DNA from: a virus
Lineage: Duplodnaviria; Heunggongvirae; Uroviricota; Caudoviricetes
DNA: 10,226 bases
IMG/VR virus record: IMGVR_UViG_2681813004_000013
Coordinates: 1-10,226 of that record
Strand: one strand, 5' to 3'
Under the pieces are notes generated by a model. The model did no database searches. It had not been told where the DNA came from and saw only the letters and a list, made by a program, of their open reading frames with translations. This document shows positions 1 to 10,226 of the stretch, piece by piece (position 1 is the first letter of the stretch; each line of letters starts with the position of its first letter). The translations under genes were made by a program, and so were the position numbers.

Positions 1-233
1 TTAACCTGGTCGCATTTTTCCTTCGACAGCTTCATTCCCGGTATGACGGGCTTACCATCCACCATTGTGGCACCACGACAGATGGTCCATATACCGGAAC
101 CATCGCGGTATGCCGTAGTGTGGTTACCCTCTTTTTCATCCAGAAACTGGTCAAGTATTTGAGGAGCAGATGCGCCTGCTCCAATCAGCGCCAGAACGAC
201 CGCTGACAGGCCGTATTTGATTTTTGCGTTCAT
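1..233 (-). CDS. SAR endolysin (phage 21 R / P1 Lyz-type lysozyme), N-terminal 77 codons; the CDS continues past the left window edge
   Basis: Minus-strand translation from the ATG at 233..231 gives MNAKIKYGLSAVVLALIGAGASAPQILDQFLDEKEGNHTTAYRDGSGIWTICRGATMVDGKPVIPGMKLSKEKCDQV. It stays open to position 1, so it is absent from the ORF track (no stop). The Gly/Ala-rich, weakly hydrophobic N-terminus looks like a signal-anchor-release domain. The E-x8-D-x5-T catalytic spacing (EGNHTTAYRDGSGIWT) matches phage 21-type lysozymes. It lies downstream of a pinholin gene. No obvious SD precedes the ATG. Confidence 0.85.
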   Translation of the reverse strand, partial: MNAKIKYGLSAVVLALIGAGASAPQILDQFLDEKEGNHTTAYRDGSGIWTICRGATMVDGKPVIPGMKLSKEKCDQV

Positions 234-338
234 GGATATTTATCAGGATTTATCGGTTTCTGAACCCTGGATATGTTTATCTGTCCCGGCCTGTTGAATC
301 AGGCGGGGAAAAGGTAAAGACAATCAAGAGGATTATTT

Positions 339-611
339 ATGGACAATAACACCATTTCTCTACAGGAGTTGCTCGACTGCATTTCCAGGCTTCGGGATGA
401 TGTAAATGCCCTCACTGTTGCATTTTCATATCTGGCTTTCTCAATTCCCAAAGAACAAATGAAACCAACACTGGCATCGCTTCTGCTTGAGTCACGCAAC
501 CCCAAATGGTCCCAGGAACAACAAAATTCTTTCAAGTGGCTGGCGGCATTACTGGAAGAAAAATATGCTGGTAAAATTACCATTTCGGTGGAGTCTTCAG
601 AGAACCAGTAA
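339..611 (+). CDS. Hypothetical 90-aa soluble, probably helical protein; the only plus-strand gene, sitting inside the lysis cassette
   Basis: ATG at 339 is preceded by AAGAGGA (326..332) at good spacing. The translation has protein-like composition, whereas the antisense ORF 299..646 looks like a shadow. I recognise no family. The upstream promoter is only weak (TTGAAT at 294..299, no convincing -10). Confidence 0.5.
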   Translation: MDNNTISLQELLDCISRLRDDVNALTVAFSYLAFSIPKEQMKPTLASLLLESRNPKWSQEQQNSFKWLAALLEEKYAGKITISVESSENQ

Positions 612-921
612 TTCTTCCCGGTAGCTTTCCTTTGTAGGTTATCCACACATTATGCGCCTCTAAAATTACGGGGCGCTTTTCCGGCGACTGCTCACTCCCT
701 TCACATAACCCGGCAGCAACATCCAGGAAGACCTGTCTGATGCTCCTTCTGGCTGCTGCCTCATAAAACTCCAGCGCGGCACCTTCAACACGGTCCAGCG
801 AGATGTCCAGGTCAAAAATTTCACCGTCAAAGCGTTTTTTGTCCCGTAACGCTAAAGTTACCGTAACTTTATTCTCAAAATTGCGGATCCCTTTCACAAT
901 CAGTTCATAGTTTTGAGTCAT
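577..921 (-). CDS. DUF1327 / YdfR-like prophage protein
   Basis: MTQNYELIVKGIRNFENKVTVTLALRDKKRFDGEIFDLDISLDRVEGAALEFYEAAARRS closely resembles my recollection of K-12 Qin prophage YdfR. The position (holin, DUF1327, lysozyme) matches Qin essQ-ydfR-rrrQ. A GGGGAGAG SD lies within the last holin codons. Confidence 0.8.
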   Translation of the reverse strand: MTQNYELIVKGIRNFENKVTVTLALRDKKRFDGEIFDLDISLDRVEGAALEFYEAAARRSIRQVFLDVAAGLCEGSEQSPEKRPVILEAHNVWITYKGKLPGRITGSLKTPPKW

Positions 922-925
922 TGAA

Positions 926-1141
926 TTACTCTCCCCGTGCAGCCTTACGCTTGTCTTCTTTAATCTTGAAATAAAGGTTTGTCAGATACGTCAGCAAGCC
1001 AAATACCAGACTACCCAGCACACCTATTGCCGCCCACTGTGAGGGCGTGACTTTATCGAGCAACTGTAAAAACCAGTACCCGGCACTACCTGCTGAGGTG
1101 CCATAGGCGACACCCGTTGTTAACTTATCCATGGATTTCAT
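926..1141 (-). CDS. Class II pinholin, phage 21 S21-like, with dual-start motif
   Basis: I trimmed ORF-track entry 926..1204 to the start at 1141. This gives [71 protein letters not shown] (71 aa). It is near-identical, as I remember it, to S21, including the Met1-Lys-Ser-Met4 antiholin/holin dual start. GAGGTGGGG lies directly upstream. It is paired with a SAR endolysin. Confidence 0.9.
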
Positions 1142-1176
1142 AACCCCACCTCGCAGATGCGGGTGCTGTGTAATGG

Positions 1177-1202
1177 AAATAAAAAGGCCACCTGACGTGG
1201 CC
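1177..1202 (-). terminator. Rho-independent terminator between the methylase remnant and the holin gene
   Basis: The minus strand reads GGCCAC-gtcag-GTGGCC followed by TTTTTATTT (plus-strand ggccac 1186..1191, gtggcc 1197..1202, A-run 1177..1185). Confidence 0.75.
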
Positions 1203-1208
1203 ACCAGA

Positions 1209-2141
1209 TTATTTCCCCACCAGCTCGTTTATCTCTTTCACTGTCTGGTTAAACCGCTCTGACTCAAGCTCAACACCTAAGGCCCGACGCCCCAGCGCCA
1301 TTGCTGCTTTTATTGTGGAACCGGATCCCATAAAAAAATCAGCAACCAGATCACCTGGTCGACTACTGGCATTGATTATTTGCCTGAGCATATCCGCCGG
1401 TTTCTCACACGGATGTTTCCCCGGGTAGAACTGAACGGGTTTATGCATCCAGACATCGGTATAAGGCACGGAGACTGATACGGAGAAATAGCGCCGGAGA
1501 GATTTAAACTCATCCAGCAATTCAGAATATTTGCGATTCAGTGAATCATAAGATGCCACCAGCTGGTGGTGTGGTTGTTCCAGTTGTTGTTCCTGAAACT
1601 TCTCTGCCGCTATACGGGAAAACAGTGCCTGTAACTTCCGATAGTCAGCCTCATTCGGCAACTGCCACTGACTGGCACCAAACCAGTGGGAAACCATATT
1701 TTTCTTACCTGTGGCTTCGGCAATTTGTTTTGCCGTTATACCCAGTTCGGCACGAGCATCCCTGAAATACGATATCAGCGGTGCCATTATGTGCTGTTTG
1801 AGTTCCCTTTCTTTTGCCGCATAGCCGTCACTTTTGCCGCGATATGGCCCCTGGTAATGTTCAGCAAACAGAACGCGCTCTGTGGCAGGAAAATATGCGC
1901 GCTGACTTTCTTTATTACACCCATTCCAACGTCCGGACGGCTTCGCCCAGATGATATGGTTAAGCACGTTGAAACGTTCACGCATCATGATCTCAATATC
2001 AGATGCCAGGCGATGCCCACAGAACAGGTAAAGGCTTCCGGCAGGTTTTAACACCCGCCAGAACTGGGCCAGACAGTGGTCCAGCCACTTAAGGTAATCT
2101 TCGTCCCCTTTCCACTGATTGTCCCAACCGTTAGGTTTCAC
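1209..2141 (-). pseudogene. 5'-truncated beta-class (N6-adenine/N4-cytosine) DNA methyltransferase
   Basis: The C-terminal part carries HPCEKP and FFMGSGST (AdoMet motif I), as expected for beta-class order. The N-terminal DPPY-type motif IV is absent, and the ORF-track start is a GTG at 2141..2139 with no SD. The reading frame upstream runs straight into tRNA sequence. By analogy with CcrM-like enzymes, roughly the first 50 or more residues are missing (inference). Confidence 0.65.
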
Positions 2142-2144
2142 CTT

Positions 2145-2179
2145 CAGTCTGCTCCCTTTGGCCGCTCGGGAACCCCACC
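2145..2179 (-). pseudogene. 5' half of a tRNA-Tyr gene (positions 1 to G34), truncated in the anticodon
   Basis: The minus strand reads GGTGGGGTTCCCGAGCGGCCAAAGGGAGCAGACTG. As I recall the sequence, this equals the acceptor 5' strand, D arm, anticodon-stem 5' strand and C32-U33-G34 of E. coli tRNA-Tyr (tyrT/U/V). Similarity ends abruptly after G34, and no T arm or 3' acceptor strand follows. Confidence 0.8.
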
Positions 2180-2187
2180 GGACTTGA

Positions 2188-2263
<76 letters not shown>

Positions 2264-2265
2264 AC

Positions 2266-2341
2266 TGGACCGCCACCGGGGACTCGAACCTCGCACACTC
2301 AACTTAAAGGGTTGACGCTCTTTCCTGATGGCTAGTGGCGG
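2266..2341 (-). tRNA. Aberrant tRNA-like gene (76 nt, CCA encoded); anticodon loop CCUUUAA, nominal anticodon UUU with C33
   Basis: The acceptor stem is perfect (CCGCCAC / GTGGCGG, then T-CCA). The anticodon stem TCAAC/GTTGA is intact, and a T loop TTCGAGT is present. The D stem has only 2 clean pairs (GCCA vs GAGC), the T stem has an A.C mismatch, position 33 is C instead of the near-universal U, and position 1 is C. It could be a degenerate argN-like tRNA or a functional non-canonical tRNA. Confidence 0.55.
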
Positions 2342-2342
2342 T

Positions 2343-2418
2343 TGGTGGCCCTTGCTGGATTTGAACCAGCGACCTGGCGATTATGAGTCGCTCGCTCTCA
2401 CCACTGAGCTAAAGGGCC
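2343..2418 (-). tRNA. tRNA-Ile2-like (anticodon CAU, ileX/ileZ type), 76 nt with CCA
   Basis: GGCCCTT / TA / GCTC-AGTGGTGA-GAGC / G / AGCGA-CTCATAA-TCGCC / AGGTC / GCTGG-TTCAAAT-CCAGC / AAGGGCC-A-CCA. It is very similar to my recollection of E. coli ileX, including C4 and C5 in the acceptor stem. Lambdoid and Stx phages carry an ileZ at this position. A tRNA-Met cannot be excluded from sequence alone. Confidence 0.85.
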
Positions 2419-2428
2419 GAGCCAAAAA

Positions 2429-2457
2429 ATAATAATCAGATGAAAATCAATAATCAA
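2429..2457 (-). promoter_or_regulatory. Candidate sigma70 promoter for the tRNA cassette
   Basis: The minus strand has TTGATT (2457..2452), a 17-nt spacer, then TATTAT (2434..2429). The predicted start, near 2422, is a few nt upstream of the tRNA-Ile 5' end (2418). The -35 overlaps the last codons of the AraC-type gene. Confidence 0.45.
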
Positions 2458-3160
2458 GCCCTTGCCTGGATACATATCTGTCTGGCGGGAAGCCATAATA
2501 GCGGTGAAATACAGAAATAAAGTAGGACCTGCTTGAATAACCGCATTTTTCTGCTATAGCCTGTCCATATCCATGCCGGGAACATAACATATTTACAGCA
2601 ACACGCATCCGCTCTTCCAGCAACAAGCGACTGAACATGCCCCCTTCATTTTTCAGTTTTGTCTTTAACAAACTCTCACTCATATGCAACTGTAGAGCAA
2701 TCGCACCAAGCGTCCAGCTTGCTGATATATCTGTCTGAATTATCGCCCTGACTTTGGCACTTATGCTGGATAAACATCCACTTAAAAACAATGACATCCG
2801 TTCATCTGTTTCAAACAGAGACAGGCAGGCCATCATAAGAAACATATCCGTGGCCTCTCCGGAAAATCCCTGGCTGGTAATTAAAGCCGCAGCCAACGCA
2901 GGATTGTTGGGTTCCAGCAACAGGTAAAGCGGAATGTCAGTCAGACGAGTCCTCGTCAGCTTATGCTGACTTTCCAGATATTGACTTACGACGGATTCGC
3001 TTATATCGACAATTTTAACTTTGCCATAATGCATAAGGAAAAGCTCCCTGATGCATTTGGTGGCCAGAACAACTGAGCCTGGCTTAAGTGACAACGTATC
3101 CTTTTCAAGAAAAATATTAATTGGGGAGCAAACCATGATAACTGAACAGACAACAGCCAT
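2447..3160 (-). CDS. AraC/XylS-family transcriptional regulator (GadX/GadW/YdeO/AppY-like subgroup; prophage moron of the PatE/Psr type)
   Basis: The C-terminal ~100 aa carry the twin HTH signature (WTLGAIALQLHMSESLLKTKLKNEGGMFSRLLLEERMRVAVNMLC...IAEKCGYSSRSYFISVFHRYYGFPPDRY). The gene is visibly AT-rich compared with its neighbours. The start is uncertain (ATG at 3160 or 3136; both have weak SDs). Confidence 0.85.
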   Translation of the reverse strand: MAVVCSVIMVCSPINIFLEKDTLSLKPGSVVLATKCIRELFLMHYGKVKIVDISESVVSQYLESQHKLTRTRLTDIPLYLLLEPNNPALAAALITSQGFSGEATDMFLMMACLSLFETDERMSLFLSGCLSSISAKVRAIIQTDISASWTLGAIALQLHMSESLLKTKLKNEGGMFSRLLLEERMRVAVNMLCSRHGYGQAIAEKCGYSSRSYFISVFHRYYGFPPDRYVSRQGLDY

Positions 3161-3195
3161 TATAATTTTACTTTCATTAGCAATTGGTTAGCTCA

Positions 3196-3226
3196 ATTAT
3201 AGCCCCAAAAGGTAAATTATCATCAA
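3196..3226 (-). promoter_or_regulatory. Possible promoter of the AraC-type gene
   Basis: The minus strand has a consensus TATAAT (3201..3196) with TTGATG (3226..3221) 19 nt upstream, which is a suboptimal spacer. It lies just downstream of the terminator at 3281..3307. Confidence 0.3.
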
Positions 3227-3280
3227 CACATAAGCAAAGGACTGACAGGTGTCGCCCCCCACCAGCCGCCCATTCACCAC

Positions 3281-3307
3281 AAATAAAAAGCCTTCAGGAC
3301 TGAAGGC
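3281..3307 (-). terminator. Rho-independent terminator overlapping the stop codon of the small wHTH gene
   Basis: The minus strand reads GCCTTCAG-tc-CTGAAGGC followed by TTTTTATTTG. The stop codon TGA (3296..3294) lies inside the hairpin. Confidence 0.7.
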
Positions 3308-3491
3308 GTCTGTAACAACCGCACTGATAGTCTGCCAGACCCGCCATAACAAGTTGGGTCAGTATTAACTGGCAGCGTTCGCGTGAAAGGTAAGTATTCT
3401 GCGCAATCTCCCCGACTGTCGCCGGTTCGGTAACGCTTAATTCATCAAACACAACTCTGGCGGTTTCTGTCATATCCTGCTGTTTCAGCAT
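3294..3491 (-). CDS. Small (65 aa) winged-helix protein, PapI/FaeA-like by pattern
   Basis: MLKQQDMTETARVVFDELSVTEPATVGEIAQNTYLSRERCQLILTQLVMAGLADYQ has the length and layout of PapI/FaeA-type small wHTH regulators (name-tag helix, then xxEIAxxxxLS, then recognition helix, then LxxxGL). GAAAGGG lies upstream of the ATG. The family assignment is from memory only. Confidence 0.55.
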   Translation of the reverse strand: MLKQQDMTETARVVFDELSVTEPATVGEIAQNTYLSRERCQLILTQLVMAGLADYQCGCYRRLQS

Positions 3492-3613
3492 GTCTTTTTA
3501 CCCTTTCCGGTTAACGTGACATACCAATAACTCTTGTCCAAAAAGCCAGCAAGCAGAAAGACCGGTATTCGCAACCACCAGCGTATTTAACGCCCCGTGC
3601 CGTTTTTCAGTCA

Positions 3614-3637
3614 TAAAAAAACCCGCAAAAAGCGGGC
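3614..3637 (-). terminator. Rho-independent terminator after the ORF6N gene
   Basis: The minus strand reads CCCGC-TTTTT-GCGGG followed by TTTTTTTAT (plus-strand cccgc 3622..3626, gcggg 3632..3636, A-run 3615..3621). Confidence 0.7.
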
Positions 3638-3734
3638 TCTTTCAAATGTCCATGTCTGCTATTCGCCTCGCGGTACAGCTTTGCGAAGCGTACCGGAATT
3701 GAAGCAGTTTATGGCTAAAATTGCAAGAACTTTT

Positions 3735-4346
3735 TTAAAGCTGCATCAGCCTTTCCACCAGTTTATCTCTGCGAACAACAAACCAACCATTGGCTCTCGC
3801 CAGTTCCAGCCATGACTCAAGGGAAATAACAATATCATCATCCCGCAACTGAATTGTGGAAACAGTGACACCGCCTCGCTGATAACAGAGAACTCGCGTG
3901 TCGTAACTTTTCTGGCATGAAGCTGGCGCTGACGGATCCTTTTGTCTGAAATAGCACTCTTCCAGTTTTTCGAACACATCCCACGCCTGATCGGTTTCGA
4001 GCATTTTGGCGTGACGGGCTGCTCCGCGTTCTGTCCAGAGAATGAGGGAGCGGGCTTTCGGGGAAATTTGTAACCCTCTTAAAGATGGTTGCAAATTTTG
4101 TGAGTTACTTAAAGTAACCCGCAAATTTTGTGAGTAGTTTAAAGCTACCCGCAATTCTTTAAGGTCATTACCAACAACTTTGAAAAAGTGTTTCCCTTCA
4201 ACGAAGCGTACTTTGTTCTCATGATGATTCTGGCGAATGCGCACCGGCTCAGTGCCGTAAAGCTGCGCCAAAAGTTCGGTGGTAATAACAGGAATCTGGT
4301 TATGGGTGATCGGGGAGAGAGTTTCAACAGAAATTTGAGTTGTCAT
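3735..4346 (-). CDS. ORF6N/KilA-N-family DNA-binding protein (antirepressor-like), first gene after pR'-tR'
   Basis: The N-terminus IPVITTELLAQLYGTEPVRIRQNHHENKVRFVEGKHFFKVVGNDLKEL and the later SLILWTERGAARHAKML follow the ORF6N pattern (VMLDxDLAELYGVETKxLNQxVKRNxxRFPEDFMFQL...AFTEQGVAMLS). AGAGGG lies upstream of the ATG at 4346. Confidence 0.75.
   Translation of the reverse strand: MTTQISVETLSPITHNQIPVITTELLAQLYGTEPVRIRQNHHENKVRFVEGKHFFKVVGNDLKELRVALNYSQNLRVTLSNSQNLQPSLRGLQISPKARSLILWTERGAARHAKMLETDQAWDVFEKLEECYFRQKDPSAPASCQKSYDTRVLCYQRGGVTVSTIQLRDDDIVISLESWLELARANGWFVVRRDKLVERLMQL
4079..4168. repeat. Imperfect tandem repeat, three copies with an exact 30-bp period, in frame inside the ORF6N CDS
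   Basis: The copies start at 4079, 4109 and 4139: ttaaagatggttgcaaattttgtgagttac / ttaaagtaacccgcaaattttgtgagtagt / ttaaagctacccgcaattctttaaggtcat. They encode the decapeptide series LRVALNYSQN / LRVTLSNSQN / LQPSLRGLQI. Confidence 0.85.
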
Positions 4347-4504
4347 AATGACGCCCTCTGGTGGTTTCTTAATAACTCACCACCGACGACGCCAATCATC
4401 TGGTGGTGAACTGTGCGGGGTTGGCGTAACCGGGAAACCGACCGGCGCGGATCTCTCCGCCCCCACACAGCCCACCATAATTCAGATGTGCGCGTGCATA
4501 CGAC

Positions 4505-4529
4505 AATAAAAAACACGCTCGCGGCGTGT
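4505..4529 (-). terminator. tR'-like rho-independent terminator of the late-promoter leader
   Basis: The minus strand reads ACACGC-cgcga-GCGTGT followed by TTTTTTATT (plus-strand acacgc 4513..4518, gcgtgt 4524..4529). Confidence 0.75.
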
Positions 4530-4585
4530 ATCTGTCGCGGTCTCTATCCAGGACGCCAATCCCGACGCCAGATTTTGCTGGCGCG
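4506..4585 (-). ncRNA. Short (~80 nt) constitutive pR' leader transcript (lambda 6S / StxS-like position)
   Basis: It is bounded by the predicted start about 7 nt after the -10 (near 4584) and by the terminator at 4505..4529. It contains a 5' hairpin CGCCAG-caaaat-CTGGCG (4582..4565). Both ends are inferred, not measured. Confidence 0.45.
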
Positions 4586-4590
4586 TGAGG

Positions 4591-4620
4591 AATATAGCCC
4601 CGGATAACAGATTGAGTCAA
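4591..4620 (-). promoter_or_regulatory. pR'-type late promoter
   Basis: The minus strand has TTGACT (4620..4615), an 18-nt spacer, then TATATT (4596..4591). The -35 contains the stop codon of the Q-like gene. A short terminated leader follows, which is the canonical lambdoid Q / pR' / tR' layout. Confidence 0.7.
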
Positions 4621-5183
4621 CAGACGGTTTTTAGATCCCCGGAAGAGAATGCATCACGCATCGGCAGATAGAGCATAAACTCTGCCATTTTCAACCACGC
4701 ATCTATGCGATTACGGCACGTGGCGTAACACCACTCAGGGTGTGAATCATTCAGCAATTCAGCCATTTTGCGCTTAGTCATCCCCCGCCCCACATAACGC
4801 TGACTCAGAACATTGAGCAGCCCGGGATAACCTGCCAGTACTTCACCAATAACCCTGTCGATTATTAACGCCTCTGAATCGGTACAATGTGCCAGCCAGC
4901 TTTTTTGATTGCCGTTGATCATATCCCGCAAAAAAGCCTCAAGTTCAGGTTTGTCCAGACCCGCTTTTTTCATCCTCCGGAGCGCCTCGTTAATTGCCGT
5001 TTTTGTCAGCTTTTTAGAGGTCAGTAATTGGTTGAACATATTTCCCGTCTTACCGTCGCCAATATACGACCAACGCCCCCACATACGCAGTTTCCCCTGG
5101 ATCCAGACACTTTCCAGCGTTTTCAGGCGTAAATGCTCACCGCTTTTGCCTGTAATTTCCGGGTATATCATATTTATGCTCAC
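4617..5183 (-). CDS. Putative late-gene antiterminator (Q-like; resembles DUF1133-type prophage antitermination proteins)
   Basis: The evidence is mainly positional: the gene is directly after rusA and directly before pR'/tR'. The translation (…LRMWGRWSYIG…EALRRMKKAGLDKPELEAFLRDM…) resembles proteins annotated as antitermination proteins in E. coli prophages, by recollection and with low certainty. The start is either the GTG at 5183 (GTGA overlap with the rusA stop) or the ATG at 5171. Confidence 0.65.
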   Translation of the reverse strand: MSINMIYPEITGKSGEHLRLKTLESVWIQGKLRMWGRWSYIGDGKTGNMFNQLLTSKKLTKTAINEALRRMKKAGLDKPELEAFLRDMINGNQKSWLAHCTDSEALIIDRVIGEVLAGYPGLLNVLSQRYVGRGMTKRKMAELLNDSHPEWCYATCRNRIDAWLKMAEFMLYLPMRDAFSSGDLKTVC

Positions 5184-5545
5184 TCACTTTCAATTTTGTA
5201 AATCTTCACGCCCAGCCGCCCAACAGAAACGAGCTGACCGCGCACAATATTGATTTCATCAAACTGCTCGTCGTCTATGAGAAGTCCGGCATGCGTCAGC
5301 GCATCCAGCGGTGCTTTCAGAATGTTGTCCAGGTCACGGCGGCGCTTATCCGGTGGCTCTGCAATAATTTTTATTGCCAGCCTTCCGGACAGGTTTAATT
5401 TCAACCTCTGCTGGCGAACAATAAGCGCCACATCACGGCGATAACGCTTTCCGGCCTCCGAGATGAAATACGTATTGCCATGACGTCGCCAGTAGGTATT
5501 CACCGTCGGCGGGTAAGGCAAAACAAATTCTATCCGTTCAGTCAT
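5180..5545 (-). CDS. rusA: Crossover junction endodeoxyribonuclease RusA (Holliday junction resolvase)
   Basis: MTERIEFVLPYPPTVNTYWRRHGN...PPDKRRRDLDNILKAPLDALTHAGLLIDDEQ matches the RusA signature (…PDRRRRDLDN…K…DAL…DD.Q…). Its ATG immediately follows the upstream stop (TGAATG). Confidence 0.9.
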   Translation of the reverse strand: MTERIEFVLPYPPTVNTYWRRHGNTYFISEAGKRYRRDVALIVRQQRLKLNLSGRLAIKIIAEPPDKRRRDLDNILKAPLDALTHAGLLIDDEQFDEINIVRGQLVSVGRLGVKIYKIESE

Positions 5546-6604
5546 TCATGCTTTCCACTTCAGGACACCCGAATTTCTCGCGTGCATTAAAAAACGAATC
5601 AGCAACAACAGCTGGCTGCCGTGTTTCTCTTCAAATTCTCTTACCCCGGCATGTAGCTCGTTATGGCAGCGTCTACACAACGGAATAACAAACAAATCGT
5701 CAGCCTTTGTTCCCGTTCCCCCCAGTCCATGACCAATGATGTGATGCGGATCATCTGCCTGATTGCCACACGCCATGCACTTCTGCGTTTTTACCCACCG
5801 CGTGTATATCGGCATCTCTTCACGTTGTGGTTTCTGGCGTCTGAGGTATTGAGCAGGAGACTCCGGATCAACAGTTATGCTGACCACCGCTTTTTCCTGT
5901 TGTGGGTTCTGTTGCTGGTGGGCGTAAGGCAACGGCGCAAGATTTTTTGTGCGCTGCTTCAGTATGCTGGTGGCGCTCTGCTCTCCCGGTACGATGTCGC
6001 TTTCACGGTACATTGAGCGGATTTTTTCCGCACGCAACCCCAGCGAACGACGTAATACCGCTTCCGGTAGCGCGTCCGCCACCTGATTGCGGACCGCCCA
6101 CCAGGATAATTCAGCCAGAGATAATTCCCGTTCCTGTGCACCACTTATTGCGTGACGTATGACGTCAATCATCCAGGCTGTCAGATTTTGTTGAGCAAGC
6201 TGCCCGAGTGATTCGGATGTCTGGTCACGCAGCTGGTTGTCGCAGTGCCAGCACAACACCATTGCGCCGGTACCATAACGGTGAATGACGGTTTCACTGT
6301 GGTGATAATCGCCGTGTGGCCACTGGCAGGATTTAACATGACGCAGTAACCAGTCAGACAATGCGCCAGCGCCACCAGCAGCACGAATCACTCGTTCGTC
6401 GCTGAAAAATGGCAGTAATGATTTATCCTCCGCCAGCGGCTGGCGAACGGCAGGAACGACCCCAGACGGCAGATTACGCATGCTTTTCGGTTCCGGCTCC
6501 ACCAGTACCCGGGTATTGTGGAATACCGGCATGGATTCACGGCCCGGCTTAACGATCACCAGCCCGAGTTCCGGTACCAGAACAGGTCGAAGTAATACCC
6601 GCAC
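5546..6604 (-). CDS. DUF968 / YdfU-like protein with a C-terminal HNH-like zinc motif
   Basis: The C-terminus CMACGNQADDPHHIIGHGLGGTGTKADDLFVIPLCRRCHNELH has a CxxC…HH…CxxCH…H arrangement. The size and the position upstream of rusA match Qin YdfU. The GTG start at 6604 is preceded by GGAGG, which overlaps the upstream stop (GGAGGTAACGTG). Confidence 0.8.
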   Translation of the reverse strand: MRVLLRPVLVPELGLVIVKPGRESMPVFHNTRVLVEPEPKSMRNLPSGVVPAVRQPLAEDKSLLPFFSDERVIRAAGGAGALSDWLLRHVKSCQWPHGDYHHSETVIHRYGTGAMVLCWHCDNQLRDQTSESLGQLAQQNLTAWMIDVIRHAISGAQERELSLAELSWWAVRNQVADALPEAVLRRSLGLRAEKIRSMYRESDIVPGEQSATSILKQRTKNLAPLPYAHQQQNPQQEKAVVSITVDPESPAQYLRRQKPQREEMPIYTRWVKTQKCMACGNQADDPHHIIGHGLGGTGTKADDLFVIPLCRRCHNELHAGVREFEEKHGSQLLLLIRFLMHARNSGVLKWKA

Positions 6605-6605
6605 G

Positions 6606-6890
6606 TTACCTCCAGAGCCGTTGCTGGAATGTGCGGGACGGACGCGGTGGGCGTTCGGAGTAAGGAAGCCTGACGGAGATTATCCAGTGACGATAATCGA
6701 GGCTGAGGGCTTCCCTAAACTCATACCCACGCCTGCGGTAGTTCTGAATCAGCCATTCGGCCTGTTCTTCAGTGCATGGGTCATGCTGATACCAGTCATA
6801 TTTGAATGTGTGAGAACGCCGCCCGTGCCTACTGGCAAAGACGGCTGAATTATCAGAATTGTTAATTTTTTTGTAATGCACCACTACCAT
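6606..6890 (-). CDS. Hypothetical protein (~92-94 aa)
   Basis: The ORF is translationally coupled to the downstream DUF968 gene. GAGGA abuts the ATG at 6890, so one of the GTG codons 2-3 codons later is the better-spaced start. I recognise no family. Confidence 0.55.
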   Translation of the reverse strand: MVVVHYKKINNSDNSAVFASRHGRRSHTFKYDWYQHDPCTEEQAEWLIQNYRRRGYEFREALSLDYRHWIISVRLPYSERPPRPSRTFQQRLWR

Positions 6891-6950
6891 CCTCGTAATG
6901 GTGCGACAGACGCCAGTTGTTCAGGCTGGCTTTAACTATAGCATTATAAT

Positions 6951-7118
6951 CTAGTCTTTCTTAATGCTGAAGTGACTGACCGAATCCGCATGCGATTCTT
7001 TGGTGATCAGAATAACATCGGGTGGCAATGGCATTACGATAAATTCACCATTCTCAAGAACTATTACTTCATAATTACCAGATACAGAAAGCGCAGCAAT
7101 TAATTCCTTATCATTCAT
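6951..7118 (-). CDS. Hypothetical 55-aa protein (below the ORF-track size cut-off)
   Basis: My own translation is MNDKELIAALSVSGNYEVIVLENGEFIVMPLPPDVILITKESHADSVSHFSIKKD, ending at TAG (6953..6951). Its own SD is weak, but an 11-codon uORF with a strong SD ends 9 nt upstream. It fills an otherwise empty gap in the operon. Confidence 0.4.
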   Translation of the reverse strand: MNDKELIAALSVSGNYEVIVLENGEFIVMPLPPDVILITKESHADSVSHFSIKKD

Positions 7119-7248
7119 AACAAAACCCTATGAACTTTTAACATTTCCCCTTAAGGGGTCCATCCCTCTTCTCCCTGCGCGCTACTTAAGTATTTTTGAT
7201 TCTATTCCGGCACCTTCAAAAAGCTCAAACGTCTTGAAAATAAACAAC

Positions 7249-7270
7249 AAAAAACCCGCCGAAGCGGGTT
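7249..7270 (-). terminator. Rho-independent terminator of the hok mRNA
   Basis: The minus strand reads AACCCGC-ttcg-GCGGGTT followed by TTTTGTTGTTT. Confidence 0.8.
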
Positions 7271-7338
7271 AAGTGCGGGTGCGTTGAGGATGCCTGACAC
7301 ATCAGAGGTGGCGAGGGATTTCTCCCCCGCCGGGTCTC

Positions 7339-7494
7339 TTACTCCTCAGGTTCGTAAGCTGTGAAGACAGCGACCTCCGTCTGGCCGGTTCGGATTCGTA
7401 CCTCGCAGAGGTCTTTCCTCGTTACCAGTGCCGTCACTATGACGGTTAAACAGATGACGATCAGGGCGATTAACATCGCCTTTTGCTGCTTCAT
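7339..7494 (-). CDS. hok: Hok-family type I toxin (51 aa), HokD/RelF-like
   Basis: My own translation is MKQQKAMLIALIVICLTVIVTALVTRKDLCEVRIRTGQTEVAVFTAYEPEE. This matches my recollection of E. coli HokD (RelF). An AAGGAG SD lies upstream. The ORF is below the ORF-track size cut-off. Confidence 0.95.
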   Translation of the reverse strand: MKQQKAMLIALIVICLTVIVTALVTRKDLCEVRIRTGQTEVAVFTAYEPEE

Positions 7495-7550
7495 AGCCTG
7501 CTTCTCCTTGACCTTTCGGTCCGTAAGAGGCTAATCTCTATGTGTCGCAT
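7491..7550 (-). CDS. mok: mok-like leader ORF (19 codons) ending in an ATGA overlap with the hok start
   Basis: ATG CGA CAC ATA GAG ATT AGC CTC TTA CGG ACC GAA AGG TCA AGG AGA AGC AGG CTA TGA. GAGG lies 8 nt upstream of its ATG. The region aligns with the R1 mok start (…AGCCUCUUAC…CAAGGAGAAG…). It is much shorter than R1 mok. Confidence 0.45.
   Translation of the reverse strand: MRHIEISLLRTERSRRSRL
7508..7537 (+). promoter_or_regulatory. sok antisense promoter
   Basis: The plus strand has TTGACC (7508..7513), an 18-nt spacer, then TAATCT (7532..7537). The context taagaggcTAATCT parallels the R1 sok promoter region as I recall it. Confidence 0.5.
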
Positions 7551-7610
7551 AGATATGGCCTCAGATTAATGTTAAGCGTCTTGCCGGACGCGTAATGTTA
7601 ACTGGGGCTT
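7544..7610 (+). ncRNA. sok: Sok-like antisense RNA (approximate ends)
   Basis: It would start about 7 nt after the -10 and be antisense to the mok SD and start codon (7550..7548 and upstream). The 3' end is not well defined: the hairpin GCGTC-ttgccg-GACGC at 7576..7591 lacks a clean U tract. Confidence 0.45.
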
Positions 7611-7668
7611 TTCTCTGTCTGCCTTACGGCGGCATGCCCGAGGCAGACAGCCTCAAGCACCCGCAGCA

Positions 7669-7696
7669 ATTCTACTTAACTCTCGCTTTACAGCAA
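7669..7696 (-). promoter_or_regulatory. hok mRNA promoter
   Basis: The minus strand has TTGCTG (7696..7691), a 16-nt spacer, then TAGAAT (7674..7669). The predicted 5' end, GGGUGCUUGAGG (7662..7651), is complementary, with one bulge, to CCUCAACGCACCC near the 3' end (plus-strand 7277..7289). This is the fold-back-inhibition pairing typical of hok mRNAs. Confidence 0.5.
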
Positions 7697-7737
7697 ACCG
7701 TTTTTGCCCGATATGGGAATTCCCATACGGAATGAAT

Positions 7738-7842
7738 TCAGTTCCCCAGGCGATCCATCAAAAACACAACCAGGCAGTAAACACCCACAACAGCAATAAC
7801 AGCCAGAGCGCCTTCCATTACCAGTGAAATATCATCCGACAT
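7738..7842 (-). CDS. 34-aa single-pass hydrophobic peptide (unannotated small ORF)
   Basis: My own translation is MSDDISLVMEGALAVIAVVGVYCLVVFLMDRLGN. A strong SD, AAGGGAGGG, lies 3-4 nt before the ATG. A candidate promoter lies upstream (TTGCTA, 18-nt spacer, TATATG, within about 7870..7905). I recognise no family. Confidence 0.5.
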   Translation of the reverse strand: MSDDISLVMEGALAVIAVVGVYCLVVFLMDRLGN

Positions 7843-7951
7843 ATTCCCTCCCTTGGTGTGAATTCCGGCGAACGTTTTTACCCCCACCGACAAATAACAT
7901 ATACTAGAAAAGCAATAGCTATAGCAACGCCTGCAAATGCATCGGGCCGGC

Positions 7952-8785
7952 TCATTGGTGCGCCCCCTGTATCGCTTCTACTGCGATCTGACTGGCGTAT
8001 TTGTTAATGGTAACGATAAGTTCTTGCTCGGCCTCATCCAGACAACCACCGATACCTCGCCTGTCACCTTCAGAAGCATCGAAATCTGCACGAACCCTGG
8101 CGACCTTCAGGATTGCGGACAACACCTCATCAGGGATTGCCGGAGAGTTGGTTGACGTTTCCGAGGTTATCCGAAAATTATTGGTTGACGAATTCTTATT
8201 TTCCCGAAAGTTTTCGGCATGAAGCATGGCGGTGTTATACCCATCCGCGAAAATCTCTGCTTCTTCGTTATTCAGTTCGGCACCAAGTTTAAGCGCAATA
8301 GCTTTTGCCATTGAGGCGGTAATTTGATGGCATGGCTGACGTCCATGAAGCATGGCGTCGCTCCGCTCTATGCCATCCAGCGCAATTCGAAGCGCATGAA
8401 TTGTAGTAATGCTATCGTTTGGGGTTATTCCGTATCGTTCGAATACAGCGATATGGTTGCGCATAATCGCAGGTGTAAGCTCTTTGTAAGCAAGAGCAAG
8501 AGGTCCAGATACATCGTTCAGCACTACCGTCATCGGTGAGGCGGCGTAGACTTCAATAATCCCAGTATCAATAGGCCATTCCCCATCCTTGATATAGTAA
8601 CTTGTTCCGTCAACTTGCTGTTCTACAATGTGGAAAGCACCTATTGGTTCTGCTTCCAGCGATGCCAGTGCAATTTTGAATAACTCGCCCTCTACCCGTG
8701 CCATCCCTGAATTGGGGTAGCATTTCGCAATCGCTATTTTTAATTTGGCTTCTTCGATTAATTTCTCTTTGGTTAATTCAGTCAC
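7952..8785 (-). CDS. Hypothetical 277-aa protein
   Basis: This is a long ORF with protein-like composition. It has an N-terminal helical segment ending ALASLEAEP, reminiscent of Ead/Ea22-like prophage proteins, and an S/T/N-rich linker (NKNSSTNNFRITSETSTNS). It has a GTG start at 8785. No confident family assignment. Confidence 0.7.
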   Translation of the reverse strand: MTELTKEKLIEEAKLKIAIAKCYPNSGMARVEGELFKIALASLEAEPIGAFHIVEQQVDGTSYYIKDGEWPIDTGIIEVYAASPMTVVLNDVSGPLALAYKELTPAIMRNHIAVFERYGITPNDSITTIHALRIALDGIERSDAMLHGRQPCHQITASMAKAIALKLGAELNNEEAEIFADGYNTAMLHAENFRENKNSSTNNFRITSETSTNSPAIPDEVLSAILKVARVRADFDASEGDRRGIGGCLDEAEQELIVTINKYASQIAVEAIQGAHQ

Positions 8786-8794
8786 TTTTCATTA

Positions 8795-8816
8795 CCGCCC
8801 TTTCGGGCGGCCTCCT
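8795..8816 (-). promoter_or_regulatory. AGGAGG followed by a GAAA-tetraloop hairpin upstream of the 277-aa gene (possible hairpin-bridged ribosome binding site)
   Basis: The minus strand reads AGGAGG (8816..8811), CCGCCC-gaaa-GGGCGG (8810..8795), taatgaaaa, then GTG (8785). No U tract follows the hairpin, so it is not a canonical terminator. Confidence 0.4.
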
Positions 8817-8820
8817 GACA

Positions 8821-9033
8821 TTAATCGTTGTGATAACTCATAGCTTCATTTGCAGCATCAACTGGATCAACATCCCACCAGCAATAATTTGGGTCGACAC
8901 CTTCAGGTGTCCACGGCTCTAATTCATTTTTTGCTACATTCTCGTCACCAGTAATTTTAAAAATCTGCTCAGAGAATTTTTTTACCCACTCGTTATATTT
9001 TTCCGCGTTAATGGTTTTCTGTGTATTTAACAT
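8821..9033 (-). CDS. Hypothetical 70-aa acidic, Trp-rich protein
   Basis: GGAGG lies 7 nt upstream of the ATG at 9033. The gene is markedly AT-rich. The C-terminal segment is EPWTPEGVDPNYCWWDVDPVDAANEAMSY. I recognise no family. Confidence 0.65.
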   Translation of the reverse strand: MLNTQKTINAEKYNEWVKKFSEQIFKITGDENVAKNELEPWTPEGVDPNYCWWDVDPVDAANEAMSYHND

Positions 9034-9078
9034 AGATATACCTCCGGTTAAGGATTAAATTTTATTTACAGTGCTGAT

Positions 9079-9438
9079 TTAATATTCAGTTCTGGCTTTT
9101 GTTGCCCTGCGTATCCGCGCTTTCGCGTTACGCTCAATCTGAATTAGCTTTTCTATATTTTTTCGCCTTTCCTGTTCCTCCTGGCGCAATAGCCTTACAT
9201 CATCTGCCAGTCTGGTTTCTCTTTTAGCCACAGAGAGCATCCAGTCAAACGGCTCCACAACTGCACCACAGATTTTGCAGCGGACCTGACGCTCTTTTTC
9301 GTCAACCCGGACAGAAGCGTGATGGCAGTATGGTCTTTCCGATGGCTCATAAAGAAAATTAACCTGATTACGTGGGTCATCCTCTTTTACCGGAAATAAA
9401 ACGATATTGCTTAACTCATCTTCTGGTTTTATTTCCAT
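9079..9438 (-). CDS. Hypothetical 119-aa protein with a Zn-ribbon-like motif and a basic coiled-coil tail
   Basis: I trimmed ORF-track entry 9079..9489 to the ATG at 9438, which is preceded by AAGGAGAGGAG. It contains YCHH…(13 aa)…CKIC, followed by a heptad-like, charged C-terminus (RLLRQEEQERRKNIEKLIQIERNAKARIRR). Confidence 0.7.
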   Translation of the reverse strand: MEIKPEDELSNIVLFPVKEDDPRNQVNFLYEPSERPYCHHASVRVDEKERQVRCKICGAVVEPFDWMLSVAKRETRLADDVRLLRQEEQERRKNIEKLIQIERNAKARIRRATKARTEY

Positions 9439-9495
9439 GCTCCTCTCCTTTGATGCGAATGCCAGCGATAATTGAAGCCTGATAGCCAATTTTAC

Positions 9496-9915
9496 TCACA
9501 GCCCCCCCTGATAATTTCCCTGATAAAACGCCAGCACTCGCTGCATAACTTCGCTCTTCCGGCACTCGCGACAGATTATATTCAGGCGCCTGTCGTAGCG
9601 ACGTATTTCTCCGTCTGGTAATGACCATATAAGGTCAGGATCAACCACAACCGGTTTCTTCAGCTTTGCCCTCGATAATTTTTTGCGGGCGTTTTGCCAG
9701 TCCTTACGAGCCTGTTCAGAGGGGAATAATCCGTAGCCTGAATTGTAAACATCACCACTGGCGACCAGTTCTCTGGCGAGAGTGCTTATGTAATACCTTG
9801 ATGCACCGGTTTTAGCCTCCAGAGCCCGTAACGTCTCGCGACCGCTCAGACGTACAAGTTCAATAACCTGCCCTTTAATTTTTTCTCGCTCTTCTTGTGT
9901 AAAAACTTTTGCCAC
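9496..9915 (-). CDS. 139-aa winged-helix protein (DUF977/FaeA-like prophage protein)
   Basis: The GTG start at 9915 is preceded by AGGAGG 4 nt upstream. The N-terminus QVIELVRLSGRETLRALEAKTGASRYYISTLARELVASGDV has a wHTH layout. The family name is from memory and has moderate certainty. Confidence 0.7.
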   Translation of the reverse strand: MAKVFTQEEREKIKGQVIELVRLSGRETLRALEAKTGASRYYISTLARELVASGDVYNSGYGLFPSEQARKDWQNARKKLSRAKLKKPVVVDPDLIWSLPDGEIRRYDRRLNIICRECRKSEVMQRVLAFYQGNYQGGL

Positions 9916-9955
9916 AAGTCCTCCTGAAAATTACCTCGTGACCTGAAATAAACAC

Positions 9956-10226
9956 TTACCCCCTGAAGCCCGGTGGAATTTCGGTATCCGGTTCAGAAAT
10001 ATGATTCACACAACGCTGGTTGTTCGTGCCGCTTACCGGGAGCAACCAGGGGTTTTCAAAATTTCGGTCCGGTCCAAAAAACGTCGTCGCTCGCTGAACA
10101 AATTCCGTTCCAGTTTTCCCGGTAACCGCCAGATATCTTGCGTAACGCCTCACGCCATCCAGCATGGCCTCTGGTGGCACCCCCTCGCGTAATCTGGCCT
10201 TCCAGGCACTGAAAGCGGATTTCTTC
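9956..10226 (-). CDS. C-terminal part of a phage replication-initiation-type protein (Phg_2220_C / DnaD-O-like C-terminus); the CDS continues past the right window edge
   Basis: The frame stays open upstream of the ORF-track GTG to the window edge (…KKSAFSAWKARLREGVPPEAMLDGVRRYARYLAVTGKTGTEFVQRATTFFGPDRNFENPW…). The pattern F..WKA…(role/date helix)…F…P..W..RW resembles the conserved phage replication-protein C-terminus. The position upstream of the nin-like genes fits. Confidence 0.6.
   Translation of the reverse strand, partial: KKSAFSAWKARLREGVPPEAMLDGVRRYARYLAVTGKTGTEFVQRATTFFGPDRNFENPWLLPVSGTNNQRCVNHISEPDTEIPPGFRG

Follow-up and report, generated by a model that had tools for sequence, protein, structure and literature searches.

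The 10,226-nt window analysed here (positions 1 to 10,226 of IMG/VR virus record IMGVR_UViG_2681813004_000013) is the rightward early-to-late region of an Escherichia coli lambdoid prophage of the Rac/Qin type. Between its replication-side genes and hok it carries three genes, referred to hereafter, together with their products, as P1, P2 and P3 (bacteriophages P1 and P7 are always named as phages), which an earlier note on this DNA had described as one AT-rich block of unrecognized families. The three genes do not form a three-gene system, because they are swapped in and out independently. The region is probably best explained as three accessory cassettes that assort independently and occupy the variable slot of the replication-to-Q early operon, brought side by side recently and by chance, and would then be ordinary mosaic cargo of that operon.

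The three open reading frames (ORFs) are co-oriented on the minus strand, as the earlier note had reported:

9079–9438, minus strand: P1, 119 amino acids (aa), ATG start, ORF with an AGGAG Shine–Dalgarno (SD) sequence
8821–9033, minus strand: P2, 70 aa, ATG start, ORF with a GGAGG SD sequence
7952–8785, minus strand: P3, 277 aa, GTG start

Their placement was also correct, the flanks being the C-terminus of a replisome organizer and a DUF977 gene on one side and hokD/sok on the other. Other parts of the description applied to only some of the genes. Good SD sequences precede P1 and P2, but the sole AGGAGG before the GTG codon of P3 lies ~25 nt upstream, across a stable hairpin. AT-richness is a property of P2 (GC content 0.371) and slightly of P1 (0.444), P3 being close, at 0.471, to the window average of 0.482. 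Each protein proved to belong to a catalogued family, phrog_1621 for P1, phrog_4659 for P2 and the Eaa/DUF551 type for P3, all of unknown function. That the three are real genes follows from the codon pattern of the P1 helix, a ratio of non-synonymous to synonymous polymorphism (pN/pS) of ~0.23 among P2 alleles, and the thousands of homologues of P3.

Independent assortment of P1, P2 and P3

Gene neighbourhoods were compared in two IMG/VR samples, consisting of the best 80 loci each for P1 and for P2, and in 5,426 complete E. coli genomes. In the P1-centred sample, P2 followed 25 of 81 P1 copies (~30%) and an unrelated hyper-acidic DUF7167 protein another 25. After the remaining copies came at least eight other genes, with Eaa-type proteins among their products; one of them we take, by eye only, to be QueH-like. 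The position directly after P1 can be taken by at least ten different genes, in keeping with the accessory hotspot that the earlier note had recognized, here the hypervariable slot of the rightward early operon. In the P2-centred sample, 57 of 81 copies lay after P1, 13 directly after DUF977 and 10 after something else. Among the complete genomes, 1,679 carried P1 (31%) and 619 carried P2. The adjacent P1–P2 pair was present in 476, corresponding to 28% of P1 carriers and 77% of P2 carriers, and 23–30% of P2 copies were found without P1. The whole DUF977-to-hok arrangement, with all three genes, occurred in 12 genomes. This check of co-occurrence argues against the single three-gene block that had been proposed, and annotators should not present the genes as a system at operon level.

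Conservation at a distance was the decisive test of whether the genes form a unit. Diverged P1 homologues from six other genera (including Kluyvera, Erwinia, Photorhabdus and Pantoea) had no P2-like neighbour. Conversely, upstream of the two diverged P2 homologues lay an Ead/Ea22-like coiled-coil protein or unrelated proteins, and not P1. A two-gene toxin–antitoxin or regulator/anti-regulator module made up of P1 and P2 was not supported, as neither obligate co-occurrence nor adjacency at a distance was found.

Several points weigh against the three-cassette reading. P1 adjoins P2 in 70–77% of the copies of the latter, the spacer being constant at ~50 nt (48–54), and the pair is also found in the early-left region of Shiga toxin (Stx) 2a phages, for example ArgO145, where it is placed between two Ead/Ea22-like genes; that the pair travels into this region leaves room for a looser functional link between P1 and P2. 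The IMG/VR samples hold many near-identical prophages, so that fractions derived from them are not independent counts. The promoter scan that bears on expression (see below) covered the sigma-70 consensus only. Other family members among the listed matches of P3 also lack PF04448, the domain missing from P3 (see below), so that a truncated Eaa protein may still function. Finally, the mechanistic roles put forward below for P1, P2 and P3 are drawn from architecture, and no biochemical function can be assigned to them.

The close association of P1 with P2 also speaks for a rival explanation, in which the two are a functional module, a basic zinc-ribbon/coiled-coil protein with an acidic partner that neutralizes or modulates it, and P3 is an unrelated neighbour. 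P1 lies directly upstream in 57 of 81 sampled P2 copies and in 476 of 619 P2-bearing genomes, and the nin-like slot and the Stx2a early-left region both contain the pair, which moves between them as a unit. The charges are complementary (isoelectric point, pI, 10.5 for the P1 helix and 4.4 for P2), and in the absence of P2 the DUF7167 protein, likewise small and hyper-acidic (pI 4.1), is found after P1 in 25 of 81 cases. However, ~70% of P1 copies are without P2, the converse holds for the fraction of P2 copies given above, and neither set of diverged homologues preserves the pairing. Moreover, P2 is confined to Escherichia/Shigella, whereas P1 is distributed across the Enterobacterales, and no toxin–antitoxin or defence model matches. 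We consider a P1–P2 module unlikely.

Small acidic proteins as a group follow P1, as a raw share, in ~63% of sampled copies. The DUF7167 protein has 60 aa and a pI of 4.1 and belongs to phrog_1997 (e.g. locus L007, 1755–1937; loci L003–L094), and a phrog_519-like acidic protein of 58 aa followed P1 in one case.

The zinc-ribbon protein P1 and the small acidic protein P2

P1 is a genuine, widely distributed phage protein of the Enterobacterales. It is a full-length member of phrog_1621 (residues 1–118, E = 9e-57), with homologues of 45–73% identity in Klebsiella, Kluyvera, Salmonella, Serratia, Erwinia, Pantoea, Yersinia and Photorhabdus, and is annotated as 'hypothetical protein' throughout the matches listed. 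An alignment of 30 sequences, reaching down to 44% identity, revealed a conserved N-terminal motif (ExELSNVVxFP), four invariant putative metal ligands (C38, H40, C54 and C57) and an invariant segment, LRxEExxRRxNIEKLIQIERNAKARIRR; the basic end of the helix, NIEKLIQIERNAKARIRR, is invariant across the Enterobacterales. Of the CHH…CxxC zinc-ribbon-like motif noted earlier, the Cys/His character is borne out, but H39 is not conserved and the motif is C-x-H…C-x-x-C. In the AlphaFold2 (AF2) model of P1 (predicted local distance difference test score, pLDDT, 76), strands at residues 43–46 and 51–54 make up a beta-hairpin ribbon and are followed by a single helix of 55 residues (63–117). The N-terminus has low confidence, and the invariant part of the helix has a pLDDT above 90. 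Four conserved ligands and two knuckles flanking the modelled beta-hairpin are consistent with a zinc-ribbon fold, and metal binding is predicted.

The sole Pfam matches of P1 were zinc ribbons, PF08271 and PF01667, in the metal-binding region. Membership of Zn_Ribbon_TF (PF08271) was rejected, the score of 21.5 bits falling short of the 29-bit gathering threshold, and no Pfam or NCBIfam family was matched above threshold. The TFIIB-type and S27e-type ribbons that these two families represent share with P1 the two knuckles and four invariant ligands, but their ligands are C4 and those of P1 are C-H-C-C, and the 55-residue basic helix that follows the ribbon in P1 is absent from them. A Foldseek search of the Protein Data Bank (PDB) returned the N-terminal ribbon of TFIIB as the best match, which was not significant (E = 0.29), and a profile search against the PDB likewise gave nothing significant.

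Across genera, the helix region showed 88 synonymous and 27 non-synonymous codon differences, as compared with 137 synonymous and 292 non-synonymous differences in the rest of the gene, which indicates that the helix end is under strong purifying selection. Its architecture and this pattern of selection suggest that P1 is most likely a small, probably dimeric adaptor or regulator, with a helix that would bind nucleic acid or a highly conserved host factor and an invariant basic end that would form the functional surface. The protein is present in about a third of complete E. coli genomes, Stx phages included, and in lambdoid prophages across the Enterobacterales. Despite an unusually invariant helix, P1 is represented in no curated family, structure or paper. 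It is the only part of the region that merits follow-up in its own right, as a target rather than a discovery.

A paralogue of P1 with 131 aa and ~27% identity was observed ~1–3 kb downstream of P1 in the same slot (L049, 5970–6365; L050, 7787–8182; L125, 3996–4391). It keeps the C-x-H…C-x-x-C-G…(D/E)PF(D/E) core of the ribbon and the E-x-NAKAR-x-R core of the helix, and some prophages therefore hold two diverged members of the P1 fold. In addition, in the rare fusion proteins P0002 and P0043, all or part of P1 is joined to an N-terminal coiled-coil segment of Ead/Ea22. Such proteins suggest either that P1 can supply the variable C-terminal part of scaffolds of the Ea22 type, or that frameshifts create fusions where the two genes overlap; gp18 and gp17 of ArgO145 are an example of overlapping Ead/Ea22-like and P1 genes.

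P2, a small acidic protein of three helices, is young and restricted to Escherichia, and belongs to phrog_4659 (residues 1–70, E = 3.9e-51). The earlier note was right about its composition, which is acidic (pI 4.36; 14 D+E as against 6 K+R) and Trp-rich (4 of 70 residues), and about its being encoded by the most AT-rich stretch of the window, the 213-nt interval of lowest GC beginning at 8950. Homologues retrieved with a word index were all from Escherichia/Shigella and all at least 71% identical. When 1.84 billion cluster representatives were scanned exhaustively with HMMER, just two diverged relatives were added, with 47–50% identity, and the pattern common to these and P2 is Y-x-x-W-V-K-x-F-S…ELE-x-W…DPVDAAN-x-x-x-S-x-Y.

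The AF2 model of P2 is a three-helix unit (pLDDT 85, predicted template modelling score 0.75) for which Foldseek gave no significant match. The model weakly resembles the sigma-2 domain of extracytoplasmic function sigma factors (Foldseek E-values > 3), but P2 is one third the size of sigma factors and no sigma-factor family was listed in its Pfam scans; the likeness may serve as a structural lead, not as a classification. Its size, charge and fold suggest that P2 would most likely bind and block a protein partner.

A bolder reading makes P1 the founding member of an undescribed phage family of host-takeover or regulatory proteins, with P2 and the DUF7167 protein as interchangeable modulators or decoys in the same pathway. 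The basic helix and the N-terminal peptide of P1 would then engage a conserved host machine or an RNA element, candidate partners being RNA polymerase, the replisome and the junction hairpin RNA described below. We regard this as quite improbable. P1 and its small acidic followers are reasonable candidates for host-takeover or counter-defence screens.

The Eaa-family protein P3 and the junction hairpin

P3, also put forward earlier as a candidate for an undescribed function, is not novel; it falls, as a mosaic member with a truncated C-terminus, into the very common Eaa/DUF551 family, found in lambdoid, P22-like and phage P1/P7-like phages. Significant homologues numbered 6,589. They bear the names 'DUF551 domain-containing protein' or 'Eaa protein', and most have PF04448 at the C-terminus. 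Matches align over 98% of P3 at 45–99% identity, with E-values down to 1e-174, the 'Eaa protein' entries P0341 and P0344 being 45% identical over 98% of its length (E ~4e-61), and tblastn placed P3 on annotated EaA genes and on Upf89.5 of phage P7.

P3 consists of an N-terminal module (…IALASLEAEP…), a middle module, the S/T/N-rich linker that the earlier note had seen (NFRENKNSSTNNFRITSETSTNSP) and a module that we label helical. Judged by sequence, this is the make-up of an Eaa-type modular early protein (P22 EaA-like), and the family has the same mosaic build, with a conserved NFRENKNSSTNNFRE…STNSP linker. PHROG matches fell on three separate segments (phrog_5117/660/3323 on residues 1–93, phrog_6847 on 66–152 and phrog_14306 on 184–273) and no phage record covered 80% or more of the protein, from which we conclude that P3 is a mosaic. 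Outside near-identical copies of this prophage, the three segments were not found combined.

P3 departs from the family in its location and in its C-terminus. It is located in the nin-like slot rather than in the early-left region, and it lacks the name-giving DUF551 domain (PF04448, ~68 residues, …GWISCSERMP…HWMPLPEPP…), for which Pfam gave no match in P3 at E ≤ 0.1 but clear matches in its relatives (P0256, 8e-20; P0250, 9e-22). In the protein alignment (A3), the relatives run past …INKYASQLAAEPIA into a Pro-rich linker and the DUF551 domain, whereas P3 diverges at …YASQIAVEAIQ and stops five codons on. A clean breakpoint was located with blastn:

7952–7969, minus strand: recombination junction, breakpoint at 7969/7970

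From 8150 to 7970 the sequence matches Eaa modules in other loci, and from 7969 to 7700 it matches the 5' flank of the transmembrane (TM)-peptide/hok module, in loci with other upstream genes. The last five codons of P3 and its stop are read from that flank, and no remnant of DUF551 was found downstream within the window. The alignment, the Pfam result and the blastn breakpoint together show that P3 is an Eaa-family protein that lost its terminal DUF551 domain by recombination, and it should be annotated as a truncated Eaa-family protein without DUF551, not as a 'DUF551 domain-containing protein'. It is at best a shortened variant, possibly on its way to decay.

Whether P3 is instead a non-functional remnant, a pseudogene in the making, has to be weighed at this point. 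Besides the loss of the domain carried by most relatives and the foreign origin of its C-terminus, its start is GTG where relatives have ATG at the same position, its exact form is limited to a few near-identical prophages, and the NCBI annotation pipeline (PGAP) gives only a pseudogene fragment here in NZ_CP027459. On the other hand, every copy seen has an uninterrupted frame of 277 codons, the break lies between modules and not within a domain, several other family members among the matches listed are also without PF04448, and GTG is a legitimate start codon. A remnant is a tenable but less than even prospect.

The Ead_Ea22 family (PF13935) shares with P1 and P3 a common stock of early accessory modules that are shuffled; it flanks the P1–P2 pair in ArgO145, and the fusion P0002 carries a PF13935 N-terminus and a complete P1. 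However, neither P1 nor P3 matches PF13935. Membership of P3 was rejected on the Pfam result and on BLASTP comparisons with gp18 and gp13 of ArgO145, which were not significant. The nearest relatives that have been studied are proteins of the exo-xis/ea region. Ea22 of lambda and Stx phages is pro-lysogenic and modular, with variable C-terminal domains (PMC7093339; PMC10834534), and in one Stx-phage variant the C-terminal domain is DUF551 (PMC10834534).

Directly after the hairpin described below, a mini-ORF of four codons (ATG AAA AGT GAC TGA, 8778–8792, minus strand) lies out of frame over the GTG start of P3. Its counterpart in relatives is ATG AAA AAT GAC TGA, in which the second ATG is the Eaa start. 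The mini-ORF may be irrelevant, or may be a translational coupling device.

The boundary between P2 and P3 is marked by a short structured element, two bases past the P2 stop and just ahead of the P3 start:

8795–8815, minus strand: inter-cassette junction element AGGAGG-CCGCCC-GAAA-GGGCGG, an SD sequence plus a 7-bp GC stem with a GAAA loop

The window contains one exact copy. The RNA has a centroid energy of −15.5 kcal/mol (z-score −3.9), and the hairpin is kept ahead of Eaa-type starts in several settings. Where loci had been chosen for P1 or P2, it always came after one of the two, whatever gene was next. In an unbiased exact-match scan, however, 46 of 117 evaluable copies followed other cassettes, and the hairpin was seen after P1, P2, DUF977 or a ~105-aa acidic protein. 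The hairpin is therefore taken to be a generic cassette-junction element; its interpretation as a P1/P2-specific element or as a target of P1, promising in the biased loci, was weakened by the unbiased scan. It was also rejected as an intrinsic terminator, having no T run and being absent from the terminator-like sites found. Some contigs carry two copies ~1.06 kb apart. Copies were located at 5009–5029 and 3937–3957 of locus L001, and ArgO145 has two in its early-left region.

Plausibly, the hairpin acts as a recombination linker and/or as a translation-initiation structure that brings the SD sequence near the start codon. Under the three-cassette reading, cassettes would be exchanged at short conserved boundary sequences, of which the element at 8795–8815 would be one. 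Short 'linker' homologies are thought to drive lambdoid mosaicism, and the SD-plus-GAAA hairpin, found at cassette boundaries of both accessory regions, is a concrete candidate for such a linker.

A more specific proposal is that P1 is an RNA-binding regulator whose helix end recognizes the GAAA-loop hairpin and controls the next cistron through its translation or stability. Strong selection at the protein level acts on the invariant basic helix, a stable GNRA-type hairpin is placed between the SD sequence and the next gene start, and the P1/P2-selected loci gave the association just described. The helix end, ERNAKARIRR, presumably resembles the arginine-rich motifs of lambdoid N proteins. Arginine-rich helices are common, however, and the copies that follow other cassettes in the unbiased scan are contrary to this proposal, which we consider highly improbable.

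Probable early transcription and the flanking genes

Every substantial ORF of the window lies on the minus strand. The features that frame the three cassettes are:

9956–10180, minus strand: replisome organizer, C-terminus
9496–9915, minus strand: DUF977 protein ('LygF'/PHROG 'Ren-like exclusion protein'; Pfam DUF977, E = 1e-29; phrog_142)
7738–7842, minus strand: gene for a 34-aa hydrophobic peptide, MSDDISLVMEGALAVIAVVGVYCLVVFLMDRLGN (sequence and strong SD sequence read directly)
7339–7494 and 7492–7662, minus strand: hokD toxin gene and sok antisense RNA region (Pfam HOK_GEF, E = 1e-23; Rfam sok, 105.9 bits)
7253–7270, minus strand: first strong intrinsic terminator of the coding strand, after hok (terminator scan)

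Promoter-like and terminator-like matches between 7200 and 10226 were at chance level when compared with shuffled sequence, and the first strong terminator is that after hok. On these grounds the genes are placed in the early transcript: P1, P2 and P3 would most likely share a transcript with the replication genes once the prophage is induced or the phage infects, and would not be expressed in the lysogen. Roles in host takeover or development therefore fit better than defence expressed by the lysogen.

A role of one or more of the genes as a defence (superinfection exclusion) or anti-defence factor has some circumstantial appeal. The hypervariable slot lies beside hok/sok and the DUF977 gene that PHROG names 'Ren-like exclusion', related prophages carry other moron-like cargo there, and the size and charge of P2 are typical of known protein inhibitors. 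The earlier note had seen in a small acidic protein beside a zinc-ribbon protein the usual look of inhibitors or sensors of host systems; P1 and P2 may be such proteins, and their adjacency is not kept at evolutionary distance. Against this, none of the three proteins matched PADLOC-DB v2 at E ≤ 0.1, and scans of Pfam, NCBIfam and PADLOC gave no match above threshold. Single-sequence and profile searches of the PDB found no match, and sequence and fold searches of the PDB detected no significant likeness to solved anti-defence proteins. No promoter or terminator sets the genes apart from the early lytic operon, contrary to what lysogen-expressed defence would call for. A literature search by accessions, PHROG identifiers, DUF551, DUF977, eaA/ead, and nin region with anti-defence returned only general Ea22 papers, none of which mentions the three proteins. 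Such a function is a candidate of low probability, and membership in the early transcript as independently assorting cassettes remains the favoured explanation.

In position, P1, P2 and P3 resemble the nin-region genes of lambda and P22 (ren, ninA–ninH), being placed between the replication genes and Q/RusA on the same early transcript, and in both cases the ORFs are small, tightly packed and dispensable-looking. In other genera, homologues of P1 are found just 5' of NinG or Q-type genes. No nin family was among the Pfam or PHROG matches of the three proteins, however, and nin genes have ATGA overlaps where P1, P2 and P3 have spacers of ~35–60 nt.

DUF977 is the final conserved replication-side gene ahead of the variable slot and lies directly 5' of P1 in 41 of 82 copies in the IMG/VR loci. 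The gene for the 34-aa peptide has its usual place ~250 nt upstream of hok in related prophages, and many loci carry both; the peptide had no family match. The closest complete genomes, at 97.4% identity, are from strains resembling Shiga toxin-producing E. coli. In the annotation of NZ_CP027459 the order is DUF977, two hypothetical genes, the 'DUF551 domain-containing protein' pseudogene fragment, a further hypothetical gene and hokD, the 34-aa peptide appearing as a hypothetical coding sequence of 105 nt.

Past sok/hokD the window continues, in order, with DUF968/HNH, RusA and a DUF1133/Q-type antiterminator. These are followed by an isrK/C4-RNA and ORF6N antirepressor module and by an AraC-family regulator with two flanking tRNAs, and the map ends with an N6/N4 DNA methylase and a phage-21-type holin. 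The isrK and C4 antisense RNA with its a1/b1 target region (Rfam; 4399–4597, minus strand) is located just 5' of the ORF6N-domain antirepressor-like gene (3735–4346). Placed downstream of the Q-like gene, the module looks like an antisense-controlled antirepressor module of the phage P1/P7 immI type. Between the antirepressor and the DNA methylase, two tRNA genes (2191–2263 and 2346–2418, minus strand) adjoin an AraC-family gene of lower GC content (2447–3160, 237 aa), and this group looks like regulatory cargo borne by the prophage.

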